Source of the DNA: a virus
UHGV virus genome: UHGV-1887975
Direction: 5' to 3' (one strand)
Length of the DNA: 11,593 bases
Below are positions 1 through 11,593 of this stretch, piece by piece. The position numbers and the translations under genes were made by a program. The notes beneath the pieces are model-generated. The model ran no database searches and was not told the origin of the DNA. It worked only from the letters and a program-made list of their open reading frames with translations. Positions within the stretch are counted from its first letter, which is position 1, and each line of letters opens with the position of its first letter.

Positions 1-62
1 CATAAAGTAAGGTCAATTACGCCAAAAATGACATTTTCACTGATCCTGATCGTCTTGCCTTA

Positions 63-92
63 TTGAATATGATTGCTATTTGCATTTAAAAT
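63..92 (+). promoter_or_regulatory. tonB: Host tonB promoter: -35 TTGAAT (63-68), -10 TAAAAT (87-92), overlapping an AT-rich Fur-box-like segment (about 65-83, GAATATGATTGCTATTTGC)
   Basis: The hexamers are read directly, with an 18-nt spacer. I recognise the surrounding sequence as the E. coli tonB upstream region. The left flank joined to the right flank across the 13-bp core restores a contiguous tonB 5' region. Confidence 0.6.
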
Positions 93-128
93 CGAGACCT
101 GGTTTTTCTACTGAAATGATTATGACTT

Positions 129-141
129 CAATGACCCTTGA
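129..141. repeat. attL core, CAATGACCCTTGA
   Basis: It is identical to 11514-11526. It contains the tonB-derived ATG at 131-133, which here opens only a 4-codon mini-ORF (ATG ACC CTT GAA TAA, 131-145). Confidence 0.75.
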
Positions 142-148
142 ATAAAGT

Positions 149-156
149 CTATTCGG
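149..156. repeat. attP' arm inverted repeat CTATTCGG, partner of 11498-11505
   Basis: It is the perfect reverse complement of CCGAATAG at 11498-11505. The two arms lie 7 and 8 nt from the core, so they are symmetric about TGA|CCC in the core. Confidence 0.65.
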
Positions 157-258
157 TTTTCTTTAGATGTTCGCCTCACATAATCTTCAAGTGATGTTCC
201 TTACATCTCCCTAGAGCGTTAAGATAGTTAACTGATTGAGTTTTCAGGGTATGAAAGG

Positions 259-924
259 ATGAGCAACACTACTGATTGGGGAAGCATGATAGCCAACATA
301 GTTATGGCTACTACCGCTGTCTGGGCTGCATTCAAAGCTAATGACTGGTTTAAAACCAAGCGTCTTGAGAGTGCTGAAAACTTCTATAAAGAAGTACACA
401 ATCTCCATAAACGTTACTATTCAGCTATCCAATACGTTGAGGATTCAAGAAGAATATTTGATAGTCAGTATGGGTTGCATTCGCCAATATCTGAACCTAA
501 AGACAAGTCATTGCAATGGGAGGTTAAATCGAACTCTTACAAAATCATCGCTGAACTAGATTATCTGGCATCGTCACTACAAATGATGGATGCAATGGGT
601 AACAAACTTAGCCCTAAATCGGCTTCACTGGTTAGTGATATGATGGAAGCACATGGACGATTCTGTAATGATGTGATGAACTTCAATGACTCAGTTTGGA
701 AGGTTATAAGGGCAGGTATAACTGAAGAGAACATCCCACATACGCGAGGCTATGTGAACGGCGATTACATGGCTATCCTTACCAGTATGGATGAACCTGT
801 AAGAATATCTTTTAAGTTAAAAGAAATCAGTTTTAAAGATTTTTACTTACATGAAACTACTATGCAGTCAGTAATAACGAGGCTGAAATCGCTTATCGCC
901 AGAACAGGTAAAAACAGGACATAA
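259..924 (+). CDS. Hypothetical membrane-anchored protein, 221 aa, with one N-terminal TM helix (about residues 9-25) and a helical soluble domain
   Basis: It is a long ORF and the first gene inside attL, on the same strand as the tonB promoter. The hydrophobic segment is MIANIVMATTAVWAAF. The SD (GAAAGG) abuts the ATG, so the exact start is uncertain. Confidence 0.7.
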   Translation: MSNTTDWGSMIANIVMATTAVWAAFKANDWFKTKRLESAENFYKEVHNLHKRYYSAIQYVEDSRRIFDSQYGLHSPISEPKDKSLQWEVKSNSYKIIAELDYLASSLQMMDAMGNKLSPKSASLVSDMMEAHGRFCNDVMNFNDSVWKVIRAGITEENIPHTRGYVNGDYMAILTSMDEPVRISFKLKEISFKDFYLHETTMQSVITRLKSLIARTGKNRT

Positions 925-1112
925 ACAGGTTAGTACCTATGCAATTTAACGGTATTTTTCCAAGTATCTATGCAATCCTACACAGATTCTATACAGTATC
1001 GACATAGTTTCCTTTTGGTATAACTTATTGAAATATATAAAGAATCTGTGAAGCCCCTTTTCAGGGTAAACTGTATCGTGTTAGTCGTCCCTCTCTCGAC
1101 TCCTAGAAAAGT

Positions 1113-1142
1113 GCTATATACAGGGCTATATAATGCTATATA
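1113..1142. repeat. Three tandem GCTATATA units (1113-1120, 1125-1132, 1135-1142), including a perfect TATAAT at 1129-1134
   Basis: Read directly, with a period of 10-12 bp. This could be a promoter cluster or an easily melted AT-rich element. Confidence 0.5.
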
Positions 1143-2591
1143 GATAGTTGGTCACATGGTGTAACTATCAAACTACTTAACAGTTTCCTACGTGAAAGTT
1201 AGAAAGTGATAGTTATAGTTACCTTGTCAAATCTTCGTAGTCCATTCTTAAAAAATCACTTACAGACACCTTAATATCTATACAGATTTCATGTAGAACA
1301 CGATTAGTGCGTAGAAGAGTCATTATGTTAAAAACGAACTGTATACGTATCAGTACTGATTTATAAGGGTTTTGTGTATTTGAAGATAAGAGGCTATACA
1401 GCACCTTGAGAGCATGTCTTCTAAGTCATTGATACATAAGGTCACAGAAGTTTGTGTCTGTTACAGAGAAAACTGGATAGGACTTCACAGAACTACAAAA
1501 TGTTACAGCTATTGATAGGTGAAATCTTCTTGATAGATGCCTTGAAGTGTGGTGAAGGTTTCTTGAGGTGGAGCTAAACAGATGCTATGAAGAAAGTCAA
1601 TAGTTGGTTATAGATATTTTAACTGCTTTTGCAAAGGGGGTGCTGTATCGTGAATCTGGGGTACTTAACAGCCATCAATCATGAGGTAGATTCTACCGAA
1701 TCAACTGTGTAGATATTTTTTAAGATTATCGGTGAAGGGGGAATGCAGAGGGGGGTACTACGATTTTTATAAAAATTTTCAGAAGCCAAATAACTACTGT
1801 GTATATTTTGCACAATCCTGCCAAACCTCATAGAAAGCTCTGTAGCGAGTTTTAACCCCATTTTTAGGGGTAACCTGTAGGGATGTACCACCCACCTTAA
1901 AATAAAGGGGTAAAATCGCTTAGAATGCGTTACAGAGCGTCTGAGAAGCTATATTCACAGATTTTACTAAAGTCTCAGACTTCTAAGTAGTCTTTTTAAC
2001 GGGAGGGTTCTTTCTCATGTATCACCCTCTCTTCCCGCTAAGTAAGCTACACAGACCTAGAGAACATGCCTTCACAGCATCTATATCAGGTCAGATTTAG
2101 AGGGTTTTGATAGAATTTTCAAAGGTACTTGACAGATAACTATGAAGTTGTTAGGAAGAATTGTTTAACGGGAGGAAAGATACGATATAACCCGAAGGGA
2201 AAGTATCATCTTAACAGTGATTGTAAGAGATACCTGAAAAGCTCCTCTTAACAGAACTACCAAGAAGAGAGGGAACGATAAGACCAGAGGTAGTGACCTG
2301 TTAAATAGTTCGTTTCAAAGCTCTTAAGAGTCTGTTAAGTAAGGGCTATGTGAACAATCTTACCATTTTGTCAATGCTCTTGTCTTTGACCTAAATCAAT
2401 AAAATGTATCGTTTGATATGGTTTTAAGCAAGATGGCTAAAAATCTTTTTAGAGGGGCGCTTCGCTTGTGTCACTATGTTCTTTCTCTCCCTGTCTAAGA
2501 GGGGGGTTACAGAGGTCTTTCAAGTCTCAATAGACAAACCGAGGAACGCAGGAAACCGAGGGAAGAAAAACTATTGTGATTACCCTGAACA

Positions 2592-2625
2592 AGGTCTGTA
2601 AAGGTCGTTTAAGAGGTCGGTTAAG
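2592..2625. repeat. Three tandem iteron-like units: AGGTCTGTAA, AGGTCGTTTAAG, AGGTCGGTTAAG
   Basis: Read directly. The units are contiguous with a period of 10-12 bp. Confidence 0.6.
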
Positions 2626-2749
2626 AAAGGAGCTTCCCTCTCTGGGGTTGTCGCTCTTCTCTCGCTTGGTGGATTGATTAGGGGGTATGTTATACAAGCC
2701 CAACTAAGAAGACCTCTGAAGCTTACCTGTGAAGAAGCTGAACAGCTAT

Positions 2750-2802
2750 TATATTGGGTGATTACAACTCATTGAAAAATAAGCATTTTTAGAAATCACT
2801 GT
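2750..2802. repeat. 53-bp direct repeat, copy 1
   Basis: 49 of 53 positions match 2844-2896, at an offset of 94 bp. Confidence 0.85.
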
Positions 2803-2843
2803 TAAGGTTGCAGAGTTGTCTGTGAGGAGACTTGTCTGCTCTC

Positions 2844-2896
2844 TATATTGGGTGGTTACAACTTATTGAAAAATAAGAACTTTTAGAAATCACTGT
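2844..2896. repeat. 53-bp direct repeat, copy 2
   Basis: 49 of 53 positions match 2750-2802. Confidence 0.85.
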
Positions 2897-2998
2897 CAGA
2901 GAGGTGAATACTTGATAGATACAGCTTTCCGGTTCTGTCAAGTCATTTTTTAATAGATAGCATAAAATGCTAAAGATACCCCTATACCATCACGTACA

Positions 2999-3026
2999 GG
3001 GGGTTTTGAAGGGGGTTTAACGGGGG
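2999..3026 (+). repeat. Three G5 tracts at 11-12-nt spacing: AGGGGGTTTTGA, AGGGGGTTTAAC, GGGGG
   Basis: G5 runs at 2999-3003, 3011-3015 and 3022-3026. The third run overlaps the last codons of the minus-strand small ORF. Confidence 0.6.
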
Positions 3027-3193
3027 TCTGTGTGGTCATTATCCTTAAGGTCAAGCGTCCATGTACGACCGAACAGTTTAAAGACAACAAGCACTCTGAC
3101 GAGGACGTAGCGAAGTAGCAGGCCTGCAATAAGTCCAATACCTCCACCAGCCCATACATCAGGTGACCCCAATTCTGGAGGGAGATTTACCAT
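3017..3193 (-). CDS. Small single-pass membrane protein, 58 aa (MVNLPPELGSPDVWAGGGIGLIAGLLLRYVLVRVLVVFKLFGRTWTLDLKDNDHTDPR)
   Basis: The ATG at 3193 is preceded by AAGGA with a 6-nt spacer on the minus strand. The protein has a clear hydrophobic helix, and the segment is locally GC-richer than its surroundings. The track's longer version (to 3235) begins at a TTG with no SD. Confidence 0.4.
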   Translation of the reverse strand: MVNLPPELGSPDVWAGGGIGLIAGLLLRYVLVRVLVVFKLFGRTWTLDLKDNDHTDPR

Positions 3194-3410
3194 TAAATTT
3201 CCTTGTAAGACGCTCTCAATCGCATTCTGACACAAAAAAGTACCTGACCTTATAGTTGACCTGAAGAGGCCATTTAACTCGTTACAGAGCGATTGAAGAG
3301 GTCTGTGTGCAATGCAATAACCATGTGACCACTCTCATAGCCACGCCTCATATTTTACTCTCCCCATAGAACCATTATACCACAGATGTTAATGAAATGT
3401 TAAAAAGTGC

Positions 3411-3439
3411 TTGACATTAGTCTTTGAAAATGCTAGTAT
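3411..3439 (+). promoter_or_regulatory. Strong sigma70 promoter for the rightward operon: TTGACA (3411-3416), 17-nt spacer, extended -10 TGcTAGTAT (3431-3439)
   Basis: Hexamers and spacing are read directly. It is followed by two TTAACA boxes (3450-3455, 3461-3466) one helical turn apart, in an operator position. Confidence 0.65.
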
Positions 3440-3487
3440 TGTATATAAGTTAACAGAGGATTAACAATTATAAGGACTAGCTTATGA

Positions 3488-4042
3488 ATGAACGACAGAG
3501 AATTTAGAGCGATGCTTCAGGCATCAAGAGAACGCAACAAGCACAACTCCTACGCTTACACAAACAACCCCACCAGCTACGAACTACCAGCCTTTTCCAA
3601 ATCCGAACGTAAAAGCATTGAAGCGGTCATTCGTAGCATTACGCCACGAGGCAGATATATGCCAACACGCAAAACAACAAAGAATAACTTAAAAACTTTC
3701 TTGATGAGTTTTGACAGCTACGAACAATTACCGTCACGAATTGAAGATGTAATTATCGGCACTTGTCGCAGCTTTGGAAGGGATAACTATCACCGGAAAG
3801 TTTTCTATTTGCTTCGAAGCCTTGATGAGATTAACTCAAGCACAGTGACGAGCCATCTTCAAAGACAAGCAACCAGACTTAGCCACGAGCTACCATCTGA
3901 TAAGTATTGCGCTAATTTAACCACCATTTGCAATAAAGTTATCGAGACAATCAATCATCATGTTGGGGTTGGTAATATCAGCCTTACGACCAGTGAGCCA
4001 GACTTTGAATTTGACGTATACGCACAAGCAGAGGAATTTTAA
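3488..4042 (+). CDS. Hypothetical protein, 184 aa
   Basis: It is the first ORF downstream of the 3411 promoter. Its stop lies 1 nt before the next start. The SD is weak or distant. Confidence 0.7.
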   Translation: MNDREFRAMLQASRERNKHNSYAYTNNPTSYELPAFSKSERKSIEAVIRSITPRGRYMPTRKTTKNNLKTFLMSFDSYEQLPSRIEDVIIGTCRSFGRDNYHRKVFYLLRSLDEINSSTVTSHLQRQATRLSHELPSDKYCANLTTICNKVIETINHHVGVGNISLTTSEPDFEFDVYAQAEEF

Positions 4043-4711: not shown

Positions 4712-4849
4712 GTCTGTGAGAATGAGTGAGACTCAAAGATGAGCTACCCTATTACTAAGGTGTCTCACTCCCTCTGTAACCCGCATGGTTACTGGCCTCA
4801 GAATGGCTATTTTGGCAGATTTAAGATGTGTTTTTATAGGATTTTAAAA

Positions 4850-5173
4850 ATGAATAATTTCCCACTACAGATTTTTATTGATACCGACACCGCCATGATG
4901 ATTCAGGCTTTCACTGATGTAGGTGTTAGCATTGACTTTGATAAGTTGTTAGAGTTAATGGCTGATNATNCNGANANCATCTNTGACTTTATTCACTCGG
5001 TGGAGTTTAACGAGCCTCGAATGATGTTACCAATTACAGACAGTAATATGAAAAGATTGGTTATTGAGCAAACGAACAAATACAGTATTTCCCCAGAGCA
5101 ATTTTTGAAAGGTGCTGTGACAATCCTGTACAGCGATAATATTTTGGTTACGGATTCCGTGAGGGTTCACTAA
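4850..5173 (+). CDS. Hypothetical protein, 107 aa, containing 6 ambiguous bases
   Basis: The ORF is in the frame of the track's 4739..5173 entry. The ATG at 4850 (MNNFPLQ...) is preferred because 4739-4849 holds two hairpins and encodes an atypical Cys/Trp/His-rich peptide. The start remains uncertain. Confidence 0.6.
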   Translation: MNNFPLQIFIDTDTAMMIQAFTDVGVSIDFDKLLELMADXXXXIXDFIHSVEFNEPRMMLPITDSNMKRLVIEQTNKYSISPEQFLKGAVTILYSDNILVTDSVRVH

Positions 5174-5273: not shown

Positions 5274-5302
5274 TTGACAAATAACCTTAAGCATGAGATG
5301 AT
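5274..5302 (+). promoter_or_regulatory. Candidate sigma70 promoter: TTGACA (5274-5279), 17-nt spacer, GATGAT (5297-5302)
   Basis: The -35 is perfect but the -10 is mediocre. It lies in a 495-nt intergenic gap. Confidence 0.3.
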
Positions 5303-5496: not shown

Positions 5497-5667
5497 AAGA
5501 GTTTTTAAAGAAATTTCTTCACCAGCCCTTTATAGCGTTTTAGTTATCTAGGGCTTTTTCAGCTTTTAAAAAGCATACTTGGCAAACGCTTTTAAGTCTC
5601 TTCTAAGTTCGTAGGCTGTCAGGTGTGCTTTTTAAAAACTGAATATTACTTAGAAGAGGAAAAAACA

Positions 5668-6378
5668 ATGACAAACGATTTATATATTAACGGCAGAAAG
5701 ATTGATAGCTTCGGGGACTGGTCACCACAGGGTGAACATCCGCTACATACTATTCAGCGTAAAGAACACGATGAAAGAATTAAGCTTGAGCAAGAGTTAA
5801 AGATGTCACCAAAGGTAATTTCCTTTGTGTCTCCTGAGCCTCAAGAAATGCCTGATGTATGCAAAACTGAAGCACTATTTAATCTTGAGCGTGAATATTA
5901 CCCACTGCTAAAAGCACAGCGTATTAAACTAGATGACGCTTACAGCAAAGTTACCCTGATGCAATCAGCTATTGAGCCATCAGAATTTGAGATTCAGGAT
6001 GAATTGTCACAGAAACCATTTGTCTATTACAAATATGAAGACAATGATGGTTTTGGTACTTTTCCTGAGAATATCCCAGACGTGATTAATAATCTTCCTG
6101 ATGGATATCGAATTGTGAAGATGGTTAAAGCTTCAAGAGGTGCTGGTCAGTTTATTTTCATGACCGATAGGAGCGATGAAGAACTCTGTGAAATTGCTAA
6201 ACAGAACATCTTAGCATCACGTAACAAGCAACTTGAAAATGTTAAGTTGTATCTCTCAAGAGAGCTTCAGGCTATGAAAGAGCTTGTTAGTGAATATGAA
6301 TCACAGAAGAAGATTGCTATGCAGGCTGATATTGAGCAGTTAGTGAAGATTTCTCAGAAATATGCAAAGGCACTTTAA
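5668..6378 (+). CDS. Hypothetical protein, 236 aa, with a coiled-coil-like C-terminus
   Basis: The ATG at 5668 is preceded by AGAGGA with a 7-nt spacer. The track's 5623 start is a GTG inside the GTGTGCT motif. Confidence 0.75.
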   Translation: MTNDLYINGRKIDSFGDWSPQGEHPLHTIQRKEHDERIKLEQELKMSPKVISFVSPEPQEMPDVCKTEALFNLEREYYPLLKAQRIKLDDAYSKVTLMQSAIEPSEFEIQDELSQKPFVYYKYEDNDGFGTFPENIPDVINNLPDGYRIVKMVKASRGAGQFIFMTDRSDEELCEIAKQNILASRNKQLENVKLYLSRELQAMKELVSEYESQKKIAMQADIEQLVKISQKYAKAL

Positions 6379-6402: not shown

Positions 6403-6606
6403 ATGATTGATTTAACAGAACGCTATGAGCTTATTAAAGCAATTAGTGAACGATTGAAAGAACAACCCAACAAACCAAAACGAATCAAATCATCCACCTC
6501 TAAGCAAAAGAATAGAATCAGAAGAATCGCTAAATGGTGTCTTGATAAATTACCAAGTGATTGTCAGATTGTCGGTGAAGATGGTAATTATTATCTGGTT
6601 AGGTAA
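6403..6606 (+). CDS. Small basic hypothetical protein, 67 aa
   Basis: Strong SD (AAAGGAGGTGGTGA then ATG). Lys/Arg-rich centre. Followed by a terminator. Confidence 0.7.
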   Translation: MIDLTERYELIKAISERLKEQPNKPKRIKSSTSKQKNRIRRIAKWCLDKLPSDCQIVGEDGNYYLVR

Positions 6607-6812: not shown

Positions 6813-8936
6813 ATGAGCAAATTCACAGTTGATAGTTTTATCGTTGAGCTAGGCTTCAATGAAAACGTTATTAAGGGACTGCAAAGAGTTGAAAAGGCAG
6901 CTTTGCAGTCAGCACAAAGAATTGAAAAGAACCTAAATAAAGGTTTCAGGATTAATACAAAGCAGCTTGATAGTAATTTAACGGCTTCTTTAGGGCAGCT
7001 TGAAAGGAAGTTTAATAAGGCCTTTGACAAGATTGAACAGAGAGCAAGAAATACTAAAGCTTTCCAGTTTACCACCAGATTTAATGACACTGTTAATCCT
7101 CCAAAACAACCAAGACAGCCACGAATTAGCGGAAACAGAGCAATCACAGCAGCTTACTCAGCGAATATGAGCAAGCTAAAAGGCCTTAACCCAATTGTCG
7201 AGAAATACATTAAGAGTCAGTTTTACGGGCTATCTGCTAAAGCCGGGTCAATGGATTCTTCAAAATTCAATGAGAAGTTAGCTCAGTTAAACGCTTCAGT
7301 CAGAGAAGCAATTGCTAAAGCCAGAGGTCATACATCCACCAGCATTAATGGTGACAGAGCAGCTAATAGTCTTGATAACCTGTCTTCAGCAGCAGTTAAA
7401 ACAGCAGGTGCATTTATCTCAATGCAGGCTGTATTAGCCAGTTATCAGAAGATTATGGAAATTGGTTTACAGCGTGCAAGTGCTGAACGTTCAATTGATT
7501 TCGTATTTGATAAAGATGCAGGTCAGGTAAAAGAGTTCACAAAGTCATTAGCTCAAACAACGGGTTTAGATATCGCTGAACTGCAATCACAGTTTGCTGG
7601 TTTTGGTGCTTCAGCTAAAGAGTCTATGGGTATTCAAGGTTCTGAAGAACTTTTTAAAAATATGATTGGCTATGCTCGTCTGATGGGGAGAAGTGAAGAA
7701 GAGATTAAGCGAGCACTGACAGCATTATCACAGATGGCTGGTAAGGGTCAGATTATGGCTGAAGAGCTTAAGGGGCAACTGGCTGAAGCTGTTCCTGGTA
7801 TGGTTCAGGTATTCGCTAAAGCAACCGGAAAGACTGAACAGGAATTATTTGATGCCATGAAGAAGGGGGCTTTAAAATCTGCCGATACTCTTCAGAAGGT
7901 CACTCAGGAACTGAATAAACAAATCACCGCTAAAGGTGGCTGGAAAGCCATTTCAGAAAGTACTCAGGCACAACTAGGGAACTTGAAAAACTCTTGGAAT
8001 ACCACGCTTGATAGTATCTTCAGAGGTTCTGAAAATGGTCTGCAAGATTTTACACGAAGCCTAACAACGCTTTTAAACGCTCTTGGTGGAAGTGGTAAAA
8101 GTCTTGGTGAATCTCTTGGTAGTCTCATGACTTCTATGTCACATGGTGTCGATAGTCTGACCGATATTAGTTACAAGGTGCGAGCGTTCTTTGATGAGGT
8201 GACATTAGCTTACCGTTCACTAAATGACACTCAGAGGAAAATTGTTGATGGTTTATCTGATGGGTTAATTGATGGTTTGAAGATGCTTGCTGTGGCTGTT
8301 ACTGCTCAAAAGGCTGCAAATGTAGCTGGAGGCTTGTTAAACCTTGCAAATGCTGTTACTTCATTCGGTGATGCTGTTAATAAAGCTAAAGCTGGCAAGG
8401 CTGGTTCTTCAGGTGGTGCGCTAAGTAAAGTCGGTAGAGTTGTCCTTTATGCTGAGTTGGTAAACTTTGCTCTTGATAATTTAAACCCTGAAGCAGCTAA
8501 GAATCCGAACTTACACCAATCAGGTATTGGTACAGAAACAAACTTCAATCCTGAATACAAAGGCGATTCTAAACCAAACCAAATTAATGAGGGGTGGGCT
8601 AAGATTGGTAGTTCTATCGCTGACTGGTTTAATGGTGCAGCTAATAAAATTGCTAACTTACAAGAACCGATGAATAACTTCGTAAATAACACACAATCAA
8701 CTCCACCAGCTATCGACACGGTGAATATCAATGCTCAATTAGCTATGGCTGTATCAGAGTTAGGAAGAAAGGTTGATGCTTTAACAGTAGAAGCTCGGAA
8801 GCCTTTATCAGTTAATATCAAAGGTGAAGCAATTGTTAGGCCGGATGAGCCATCTTTCTTTAATTTCAATCAATCAGCTAATGACCAGTTCACGCAGGAT
8901 ATGCTCTTAAGTTCAAGCTATCCAGAGGAAGAATGA
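6813..8936 (+). CDS. Tail tape measure-like protein, 707 aa
   Basis: The central segment ALSQMAGKGQIMAEELKGQLAEAVPGMVQVFAKATGKTEQELFDAMKKGALKSAD matches the conserved tape-measure core motif known from lambda H/TP901-type TMPs. The protein is long, helical and Ala/Gly/Ser-rich. GAGGTG SD with an 8-nt spacer. Confidence 0.85.
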   Translation: MSKFTVDSFIVELGFNENVIKGLQRVEKAALQSAQRIEKNLNKGFRINTKQLDSNLTASLGQLERKFNKAFDKIEQRARNTKAFQFTTRFNDTVNPPKQPRQPRISGNRAITAAYSANMSKLKGLNPIVEKYIKSQFYGLSAKAGSMDSSKFNEKLAQLNASVREAIAKARGHTSTSINGDRAANSLDNLSSAAVKTAGAFISMQAVLASYQKIMEIGLQRASAERSIDFVFDKDAGQVKEFTKSLAQTTGLDIAELQSQFAGFGASAKESMGIQGSEELFKNMIGYARLMGRSEEEIKRALTALSQMAGKGQIMAEELKGQLAEAVPGMVQVFAKATGKTEQELFDAMKKGALKSADTLQKVTQELNKQITAKGGWKAISESTQAQLGNLKNSWNTTLDSIFRGSENGLQDFTRSLTTLLNALGGSGKSLGESLGSLMTSMSHGVDSLTDISYKVRAFFDEVTLAYRSLNDTQRKIVDGLSDGLIDGLKMLAVAVTAQKAANVAGGLLNLANAVTSFGDAVNKAKAGKAGSSGGALSKVGRVVLYAELVNFALDNLNPEAAKNPNLHQSGIGTETNFNPEYKGDSKPNQINEGWAKIGSSIADWFNGAANKIANLQEPMNNFVNNTQSTPPAIDTVNINAQLAMAVSELGRKVDALTVEARKPLSVNIKGEAIVRPDEPSFFNFNQSANDQFTQDMLLSSSYPEEE

Positions 8937-8950
8937 TTTCTTATATATAT

Positions 8951-9026
8951 CCGTGTGCTACGTGAAATCTTCTGAACGGATATACCCACTAAAAATTATT
9001 TTTTACGTAGCTCACGCTTAACAGAG
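8951..9026 (+). promoter_or_regulatory. Conserved GTGTGCT-box intergenic element, copy B, upstream of the 9102 gene
   Basis: GTGTGCTACGTGA at 8953-8965 and TACCCACTAAAAATTATTTTTTACGTAGCTCACGCTTAACAGAG at 8983-9026. The ends form a 16-bp stem with one mismatch (8952-8967 with 9001-9016). Confidence 0.55.
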
Positions 9027-9101
9027 AAAATACTTATATATCAAAGGTTTGGTTAAAAATGATTAAAATACACTAAGCCTTTGAAATCAAAGGAGAATTT
9101 A

Positions 9102-9872
9102 ATGATTTACACTAATCAGCTTCGTTACAGTGGCAAAGATGGTGTTTACTTCCATCTACAAGGCCAACCAGATAATTTCTTGTCACTATCAGCAACTGAG
9201 AACATGGAATATGACAGCCCTATGATGGTGACCACTCAAAATATGCAATCAGGGCAGACTGTAACAGATAATGTAATGCGTTCACCAAGAACTATTTCAA
9301 TCAGTGGTGTGGTTGTGGTTGGTGAATCCGGTAGTATCCTTATCTCAAGAGATAATAAGCTGGTGGAAAACTTCATAGACACTCTTGAAAACTGGCGTGA
9401 CCAGAAGCAAATTATCTCAGTTGTCTGTAAAGATGGTATTAAGATTGACGACTCAATTATTACAAGCTTTAAAGCCTCTAAAGATGTTGGTATTTCAAAC
9501 GGCCTAAGAATCCAGCTAACTTTTCAGGAAATCAACTTTAAAGCTATCGTAGGGCAAACTGATATTTCGACTGCTACTGGCAAGACCGCTACCACGAATG
9601 ATGGTGGTGCTACTTCTAAGAAGAATACAGGGAATACTACGACAAGTCTTGGAAGCCCTATGCTGACCTGTAAAGAGCTTTTTAGCTATTCGGCAAGTAA
9701 GTTATCAGATGAAGCGCTAAAAGCCCGTGTAACGTGCTCTAAGAGCGTTAGCGTTAAAAATGGTGAGAGCACCTTCACAGCCTCAGCTAATGAGCAAGCT
9801 TCAAAGGTGCTTAAGTCGGGTAATGCTTTACGGAAGTACTCTGTGAATCCGAATAAGAAGGGCACTTATTGA
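9102..9872 (+). CDS. Hypothetical tail-associated protein, 256 aa, named by position downstream of the TMP; the C-terminal half is Thr/Ser/Gly-rich
   Basis: The ATG at 9102 is preceded by AAGGAG with a 6-nt spacer. The track's 9081 start is a TTG. The function is inferred only from synteny with the TMP. Confidence 0.7.
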
Positions 9873-11425: not shown

Positions 11426-11467
11426 GGTGATAAACTCCCATGCAATTGATTCTCATTTAAAGATAAG

Positions 11468-11495
11468 CTTATAACCATTATGGCTAATGCTACAA
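11468..11495 (-). promoter_or_regulatory. Candidate integrase promoter on the minus strand: TTGTAG (-35, plus-strand coordinates 11490-11495), 16-nt spacer, TATAAG (-10, 11468-11473)
   Basis: Hexamers read from the reverse complement. It would give a leader of about 36 nt before the int ATG. Confidence 0.35.
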
Positions 11496-11496
11496 T
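11469..11496 (+). promoter_or_regulatory. Candidate island-borne outward promoter facing tonB: TTATAA (11469-11474), 16-nt spacer, extended -10 TGcTACAAT (11488-11496)
   Basis: Read directly. GCTACAAT recurs at 11505-11512. This is the only promoter-like sequence between the integrase gene and the tonB ATG. Confidence 0.35.
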
Positions 11497-11497
11497 G

Positions 11498-11505
11498 CCG
11501 AATAG
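11498..11505. repeat. attP arm inverted repeat CCGAATAG, partner of 149-156
   Basis: It is the perfect reverse complement of 149-156 and lies 8 nt from the core. Confidence 0.65.
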
Positions 11506-11513
11506 CTACAATA

Positions 11514-11526
11514 CAATGACCCTTGA
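11514..11526. repeat. attR core, CAATGACCCTTGA
   Basis: It is identical to 129-141 and contains the functional tonB ATG (11516-11518). Confidence 0.75.
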
Positions 11527-11593
11527 TTTACCTCGCCGCTTCCCCTGGCCGACGTTACTTTCGGTCTGCATTCATGGTGCTGTTGTGGCGGGG
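11516..11593 (+). CDS. tonB: TonB energy-transducer, 5' partial (first 26 codons; continues beyond the window)
   Basis: The translation MTLDLPRRFPWPTLLSVCIHGAVVAG matches the E. coli TonB N-terminus as I remember it. The reading frame is open to the window edge. Confidence 0.85.
   Translation, partial: MTLDLPRRFPWPTLLSVCIHGAVVAG

Follow-up and report, generated by a model that had tools for sequence, protein, structure and literature searches.

On balance, we favor a model in which a small island that integrates within the first codons of tonB in Escherichia coli exchanges 5′ control regions with its host, so that the tonB promoter would serve the first gene of the island (ORF1) and a promoter carried by the island would serve tonB. 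The island would recombine with the chromosome inside tonB codons 1 to 4 by means of a large serine recombinase, and since this crossover falls between the promoter and the first coding sequence of each partner, integration would swap their 5′ control regions. Such a promoter swap is a plausible form of regulatory rewiring, proposed here from sequence comparisons and motif scores.

Judging from its flanks, the window (the whole stretch of 11,593 nucleotides analyzed here, UHGV virus genome UHGV-1887975) is a segment of the E. coli chromosome whose ends are the two halves of the K-12 yciI-tonB region. Its first 1,200 bases are 100% identical to UTAK-18. The yciI-tonB intergenic region of K-12 matches positions 1 to 141 at 139 of 141 bases, and the right flank (11516-11593) matches K-12 at 77 of 78. 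An island of 11,385 bp (~11.4 kb) separates these two host flanks. It is a site-specific island, integrated by a large serine recombinase that carries Resolvase, Recombinase, and Zn_ribbon_recom domains (Pfam) and is an integrase by PHROG 95. The core CAATGACCCTTGA at attL has its second copy, the attR core, at 11514-11526, and the crossover falls within these 13 bp. We rebuilt attP by joining the left arm, taken from the right junction, to the right arm, taken from the left junction. In the rebuilt site, two 8-bp arms separated by 28 nt (CCGAATAG and CTATTCGG) form a perfect inverted repeat centered on the core, in which CTATTCGG (149-156, attP right arm) is the inverted partner of CCGAATAG (11498-11505). 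The center of symmetry lies between A134 and C135, within tonB codon 2. At the right junction, the host reading frame of tonB is restored intact, and RefSeq annotates a full-length TonB of 239 aa in the carriers. K-12 and most of the 5,426 complete E. coli genomes have an empty (uninterrupted) site, while a query covering the integrase-tonB junction was at least 80% present in 157 of the 5,426. About 3% of complete E. coli genomes carry the island between tonB and the tonB promoter, and UTAK-18, FORC_069, and UMNK88 are among the carriers. No excised attP junction was found in viral and metagenome contig collections, a result with which excision is still compatible. The features of the window are collected in Table 1.

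Table 1. Features at the two junctions of the tonB island and in their surroundings (window coordinates)
Feature	Position	Strand	Remarks
Fur operator of the native tonB promoter	58-90		Published footprint mapped to the window
tonB sigma-70 promoter	63-92	+	-35 TTGAAT (63-68), 18-nt spacer, -10 TAAAAT (87-92)
attL core CAATGACCCTTGA, 13 bp	129-141		Identical to attR core
Four-codon mini-ORF MTLE*, ATG ACC CTT GAA TAA	131-145	+	tonB start codon fused to island sequence
attP right arm	142-163		Conserved in islands with and without ORF1
ORF1 cassette leader, 76 nt	183-258	+	Conserved; contains a weak promoter-like site
ORF1, 221 aa	259-924	+	Hypothetical protein in RefSeq; variable cargo
Large serine recombinase (integrase), 506 aa	9905-11425	-	At the right end of the island
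Fur-like box GCAATTGATTCTCATTTAA	11442-11460		Just upstream of the integrase start codon
Extended -10 TGcTACAAT	11488-11496	+	Best tonB promoter candidate in carriers
attP left arm (CCGAATAG, 11498-11505) and attR core (11514-11526)	11498-11526		
Intact 5′ end of tonB (MTLDLPRRFPW...)	11516-11593	+	Continues past the window end

The native tonB promoter and a Fur-box-like region had been placed at 63-92 in a preliminary description of this DNA, and this was borne out by a consensus scan, by weight matrices, and by identity with the published footprint. The scan detected TTGAAT-18-TAAAAT, which a sigma-70 weight matrix, used as a heuristic, ranked 15th among the 115,620 placements in the window. 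The operator was scored with a Fur matrix trained on ten K-12 promoters (fepA, entS, entC, fecA, fecI, fhuF, cirA, ryhB, fhuA, and exbB), from which tonB was excluded. This matrix reproduced the classical Fur consensus and gave 10.3 bits at 65-83, rank 2 of the 11,575 window positions. It replaced the counting of matches to the 19-bp Fur consensus, which was dropped since the genuine operator reached 12 of 19 matches, a count equalled at 25 other places in the window. The Fur footprint on tonB has been mapped to NC_000913.2 1309040-1309072 (PMC2189734, Table 3), which, with the tonB start at 1309113 (PMC1807945, Fig. 5 legend), corresponds to window positions 58-90, a stretch identical to K-12 at 33 of 33 bases. 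tonB is a member of the Fur regulon (PMC4676285), and an 11.7-bit sigma-70 site located 8 nt upstream of its proven transcription start has two Fur sites lying across its -35 (PMC1807945). Native promoter and operator are also conserved in the Citrobacter koseri island locus. The control of tonB by Fur may be only modest, and Young and Postle are said to have found in 1994 that repression is only about threefold.

Downstream of this promoter, the left junction places ORF1 on the same strand. The tonB ATG lies 128 nt from ORF1 in every ORF1-bearing island examined, so the geometry of promoter capture put forward earlier is real and recurrent, and the coordinates and strand given then for the first island gene hold. 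What did not hold is the description of 131-145 as a truncated four-codon remnant: the sequence and position were right, and the reading as a truncated gene is incorrect, since a complete tonB follows at attR (11516 onward). The first 11 nt of this mini-ORF are common to both junctions, and in sister islands it reads MTLE* with a TGA stop, MPLE*, or MTLDLSLFGFL* (11 codons). The untranslated gap between the mini-ORF and ORF1 is short, as had been noted, and measures 113 nt (146-258) rather than about 115.

Positions 130-262 hold no terminator and no sigma-70 site better than rank 283 (5.6 bits), which makes the tonB promoter the nearest credible promoter. The preliminary description had also seen no convincing terminator here, and indeed the plus strand of 1-1300 contains no intrinsic-terminator-like site. 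This is a weak test of the co-oriented host promoter and ORF1, since about 0.5 terminator-like sites per 1,300 nt are expected by chance on both strands and zero in 113 nt therefore says little; the absence permits read-through and does not argue for selection. Given the weak leader site and the lack of a terminator, some read-through of the tonB promoter into ORF1 is likely, whereas a biologically meaningful iron response of ORF1 has an about even chance. In the model that we favor, a transcript that we infer to start near position 99, from the host promoter and Fur operator (58-92), would cross the attL half-site, the four-codon mini-ORF would be translated, and the transcript would continue through 113 untranslated nucleotides into ORF1. 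ORF1 would in this way receive iron- and Fur-responsive read-through, plus any weak promoter activity of its own leader. In the excised circle, the island promoter would instead read across attP into the mini-ORF and ORF1.

The leader itself, when folded and compared with shuffled sequence, showed nothing unusual (z = 0.1-0.2), and an Rfam search gave no relevant match. A hairpin masking the ribosome-binding region of ORF1 (198-258) was discarded, since its energy does not surpass that of shuffles (z 0.1-0.2) and the substitutions between alleles are not compensatory. The ends of assembly contigs were likewise discarded as a signal of the tonB transcription start, because short public contigs end at branch points of the assembly graph.

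ORF1 itself had no match in Pfam, PHROGs, or PADLOC, nor in a tblastn search against phage genomes. In the structure predicted by AlphaFold2 (pLDDT 69.6), a hydrophobic helix at the N terminus precedes a bundle of five helices, and two fold searches with this model returned only generic helical bundles, without functional assignment. Its earlier description as membrane anchored is tentative at best, the best 19-residue Kyte-Doolittle mean being 1.32, below the usual cut-off of 1.6, and the AlphaFold2 confidence being <40 for residues 1-31. The family is narrow (23 clusters) and occurs in Escherichia, C. koseri, Salmonella, and Hafnia. ORF1 is carried by 54 of the 5,426 complete E. coli genomes, at a single chromosomal place in each. 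It is the first gene after attL in all 7 E. coli loci fetched, and it also follows attL directly in the C. koseri and metagenome loci. An allele of 225 aa, present in 8 of the 54 E. coli genomes, shares the leader and residues 1 to 30 and is thereafter only ~45% identical, a pattern of divergence typical of cargo under diversifying selection.

The occurrence of ORF1 outside the island bears on whether it needs the tonB promoter at all. In Hafnia, the segment corresponding to 183-929 (leader and ORF1) is found at 88% identity outside any tonB context, where its neighbors are a gene of 260 aa and a small serine recombinase. In islands without ORF1, the core and 22 nt are followed directly by sequence homologous to window positions 901-1251. 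The Hafnia copies and the ORF1-less islands together indicate that ORF1 is a mobile cassette with its own 76-nt leader, and its presence away from tonB in Hafnia implies that it can be expressed without the tonB promoter. A tentative alternative, which we consider possible if not probable, is thus that ORF1 is transcribed mainly from a cassette promoter, TTCCTT-17-TAAGAT (197-225), maybe with the aid of an activator or of phage infection and without a useful iron response, while most transcription from the tonB promoter would cease before 259, e.g., by the action of Rho on the untranslated leader. The leader accompanies ORF1 into non-tonB contexts at ~88% identity, and its candidate -10, TA[A/G][G/A]AT, keeps T1, A2, A5, and T6 in all 8 variants, only positions 3 and 4 being variable (TAAGAT, TAAAAT, or TAGGAT). 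This hexamer lies 33 nt before the ATG, a typical distance, and its conservation suggests a promoter of ORF1 that is weak or activator dependent; with the Hafnia cassette, it means that ORF1 may be self-sufficient. Nevertheless, the site scores only 5.2 bits (rank ~380) and matches the -35 at 2 of 6 positions, and the Hafnia loci, too, show nothing stronger immediately upstream. As for the loss of tonB-promoter transcripts, the stretch 133-210 is mildly richer in C than in G (C/G 1.7), and Rho-dependent termination could occur in this untranslated gap, against which stands the lack of any terminator found before 259.

The other half of the favored model, an island-supplied promoter for tonB, was missed in the preliminary description. 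Because the integrase is transcribed in the direction opposite to tonB, and the single terminator-like hairpin nearby serves the minus strand, the tonB promoter of carriers must lie in 11426-11515. The best candidate for this substitute promoter is the extended -10 TGcTACAAT (8.0 bits, rank 53 in the sigma-70 matrix). TGnTACAAT is invariant in 40 loci representing 11 distinct sequences, where only the free n varies (c or t). The arrangement thus looks reciprocal in its motifs, with the island giving tonB a new promoter while the host promoter faces ORF1: TGnTACAAT would drive the intact tonB, with a Fur-like box adjoining. Use of this promoter would leave tonB a leader of only ~13 nt, which we counted against the swap model.

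The Fur-like box starts 74 nt upstream of the tonB ATG, close to the -66 of the native box, and scores 8.9 bits, rank 3 in the window. It is found at -74 in 40 of 40 related loci (11 distinct sequences), with 8.9 to 10.8 bits, and only 1 of 125 island tiles scores as high. Dinucleotide shuffles reached the box score in 3.6% of cases for the island intergenic region, 1.8% for its majority variant, and 2.9% for the genuine tonB region; the similarity of these values (P = 0.036 and 0.018 versus 0.029) makes the island box as good as the genuine operator. The conservation extends to a metagenome contig (OLJR01000968.1, locus L041) from a host other than E. coli, with a TonB that is not that of E. 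coli. Its integrase, which targets the same tonB site, is only 54% identical over the first 190 residues, and 35 of the last 36 nt are kept, with a 10.5-bit box at -74. A search of genome contigs with the integrase returned one locus only. As a Fur site, the box is only suggestive. In comparison with Fur-repressed promoters of E. coli, the genuine tonB operator, known from footprinting, is at the left junction and the box at the right junction scores similarly, whereas this candidate, instead of covering the -35 position of TGnTACAAT, lies ~8 nt upstream of it and overlaps the likely integrase promoter. It may therefore control int rather than tonB, or it may be a chance match (P about 0.02-0.04). 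A box picked by eye at 11464-11482 was dropped, as it scores only 4.5 bits and varies among islands. The pair TTGATT-18-TATAAC (11446-11475) copies the spacing and ATG distance of the native promoter and is a weak alternative only; none of the variants has the last T of its -10, and the divergent locus does not retain its -35.

A more ambitious version of the swap, in which the surrogate tonB promoter comes with its own Fur operator, is in our view unlikely. Two iron-responsive promoters would then be exchanged, tonB would stay in the Fur regulon, and the host tonB promoter would turn ORF1 on under iron starvation. TonB energizes the uptake of iron, and several phages and colicins depend on it for entry. 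If this version were true, ORF1, as a candidate phage-exclusion or defense factor, would be on just when the TonB-dependent receptors that serve phages and colicins reach their highest abundance, and a Fur box overlapping the integrase promoter could tie excision to iron status.

It is similarly doubtful that the orientation of the island is a mere by-product of the integrase cut, selection keeping only tonB expressed and read-through having no functional consequence. The left-end cargo does vary, some islands having ORF1, some a small recombinase (on one strand or the other), and some a gene of 245 aa, and the right-end block from -36 to -1 stays identical at 35 of 36 positions even beside the 54%-identical integrase. 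Moreover, one cassette insertion may have given rise to all ORF1 islands, and their common layout therefore does not count as independent evidence. In some sister islands the first gene is that of a recombinase on the minus strand, and co-orientation is hence not a rule of the family; by this comparison, the island family has not been selected for read-through into a gene of matching orientation. Against the by-product explanation, every other gene of the island, with the exception of int, runs in the direction of the tonB promoter, and a promoter this strong, facing an open reading frame without a barrier, normally transcribes it.

Integration at the 5′ end of a host gene is known from SXT, which, as Hochhut and Waldor reportedly described in 1999, gives prfC a new promoter and first codons, so that the host gene stays functional. 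The repair of prfC by SXT/R391 matches the attR side of the tonB island. In contrast, SXT is a conjugative element of ~100 kb with a tyrosine integrase, and the island described here has ~11.4 kb and a large serine recombinase. For SXT, we know of no description of the capture of the displaced host promoter or of a regulator box mimicking that of the host. Integration state also sets expression in lambda sib retroregulation and in the integration-dependent immunity of mycobacteriophage BPs. In these systems, as here, the att crossover changes which control sequences are joined, and expression differs between the integrated and excised states. However, they rewire their own int or repressor at the 3′ end, whereas here 5′ promoter regions of host and element are exchanged. 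The PLE satellites of Vibrio cholerae are small islands with a large serine recombinase, tied to a virulent myophage (PMC7145576 and PMC9638900). The tonB island resembles them as a small serine-recombinase island with tail genes closest to Felixounavirus and differs in that PLEs integrate in repeats while this island lies in the 5′ end of a gene. Our literature searches gave no description of an island at tonB. Integration at 5′ ends is known (SXT at prfC) and rewiring by integration state is classical, and the proposed promoter swap at the tonB site would be a variation on such integration.

If the swap works as proposed, carriers run tonB from foreign control DNA, and an island gene is expressed from a host iron-starvation promoter. 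The island would then illustrate, on a small scale, how a mobile element can plug into a host regulon in both directions, and it would be a simple case in which the choice of integration site sets the regulation of cargo.

Some further observations concern the rest of the island. Its tape-measure and Dit-like (baseplate) genes, within 6813-9872, are closest to adjacent tail genes of virulent Felix O1-like phages (Felixounavirus), with 80 to 84% nucleotide identity for the Dit-like gene and ~32% amino acid identity for the tape measure. This likeness hints at a satellite of Felix O1-like phages or at a tail-interference or decoy element. We recognized no replication or packaging genes in the island, only the integrase and the Felixounavirus tail-gene homologs. 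The strongest Fur-matrix score of the window (17.0 bits) falls at 6577-6595, GAAGATGGTAATTATTATC, inside a small ORF (6403-6606), with the tape-measure gene following ~220 nt further on; the corresponding place in sister islands has a Fur-matrix site of 13.9 bits.

Behind ORF1, positions 925-3487 form a stretch of 2.5 kb without any ORF longer than 72 aa, in which tblastn detected no remnants of the small recombinase, methyltransferase, and HTH genes that sister islands have there. A direct repeat of 53 nt lies here (2750-2802 and 2844-2896), together with an inverted repeat (978-993 and 1038-1053) and, around 1113-1146, three GCTATATA motifs; an origin, a packaging site, or a noncoding RNA region is possible. 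In sister islands, the small serine recombinase adjoining attL lies on opposite strands (L002, L004, and L049 versus L035 and L044), and island sizes are 4.4, 6.0, and 11.4 to 12.0 kb. This variability in strand and size suggests a left end that is invertible or exchanges cassettes.

The best plus-strand sigma-70-like site of the window, at 3411-3439 (TTGACA-17-TAGTAT with an upstream TG, 14.1 bits), and the second best, at 5274-5302 (TTGACA-17-GATGAT, 12.5 bits), precede the genes at 3488 and 5623 and are probably the operon promoters of the island itself. The 251-aa ORF at 5623-6378 has a counterpart annotated as "transposase" in RefSeq and no Pfam, PHROG, or PADLOC match. Finally, the window has six ambiguous bases (N) at 4967-4983, inside the ORF 4739-5173, and the RefSeq counterpart of the island exceeds that of the window by 2 bp.
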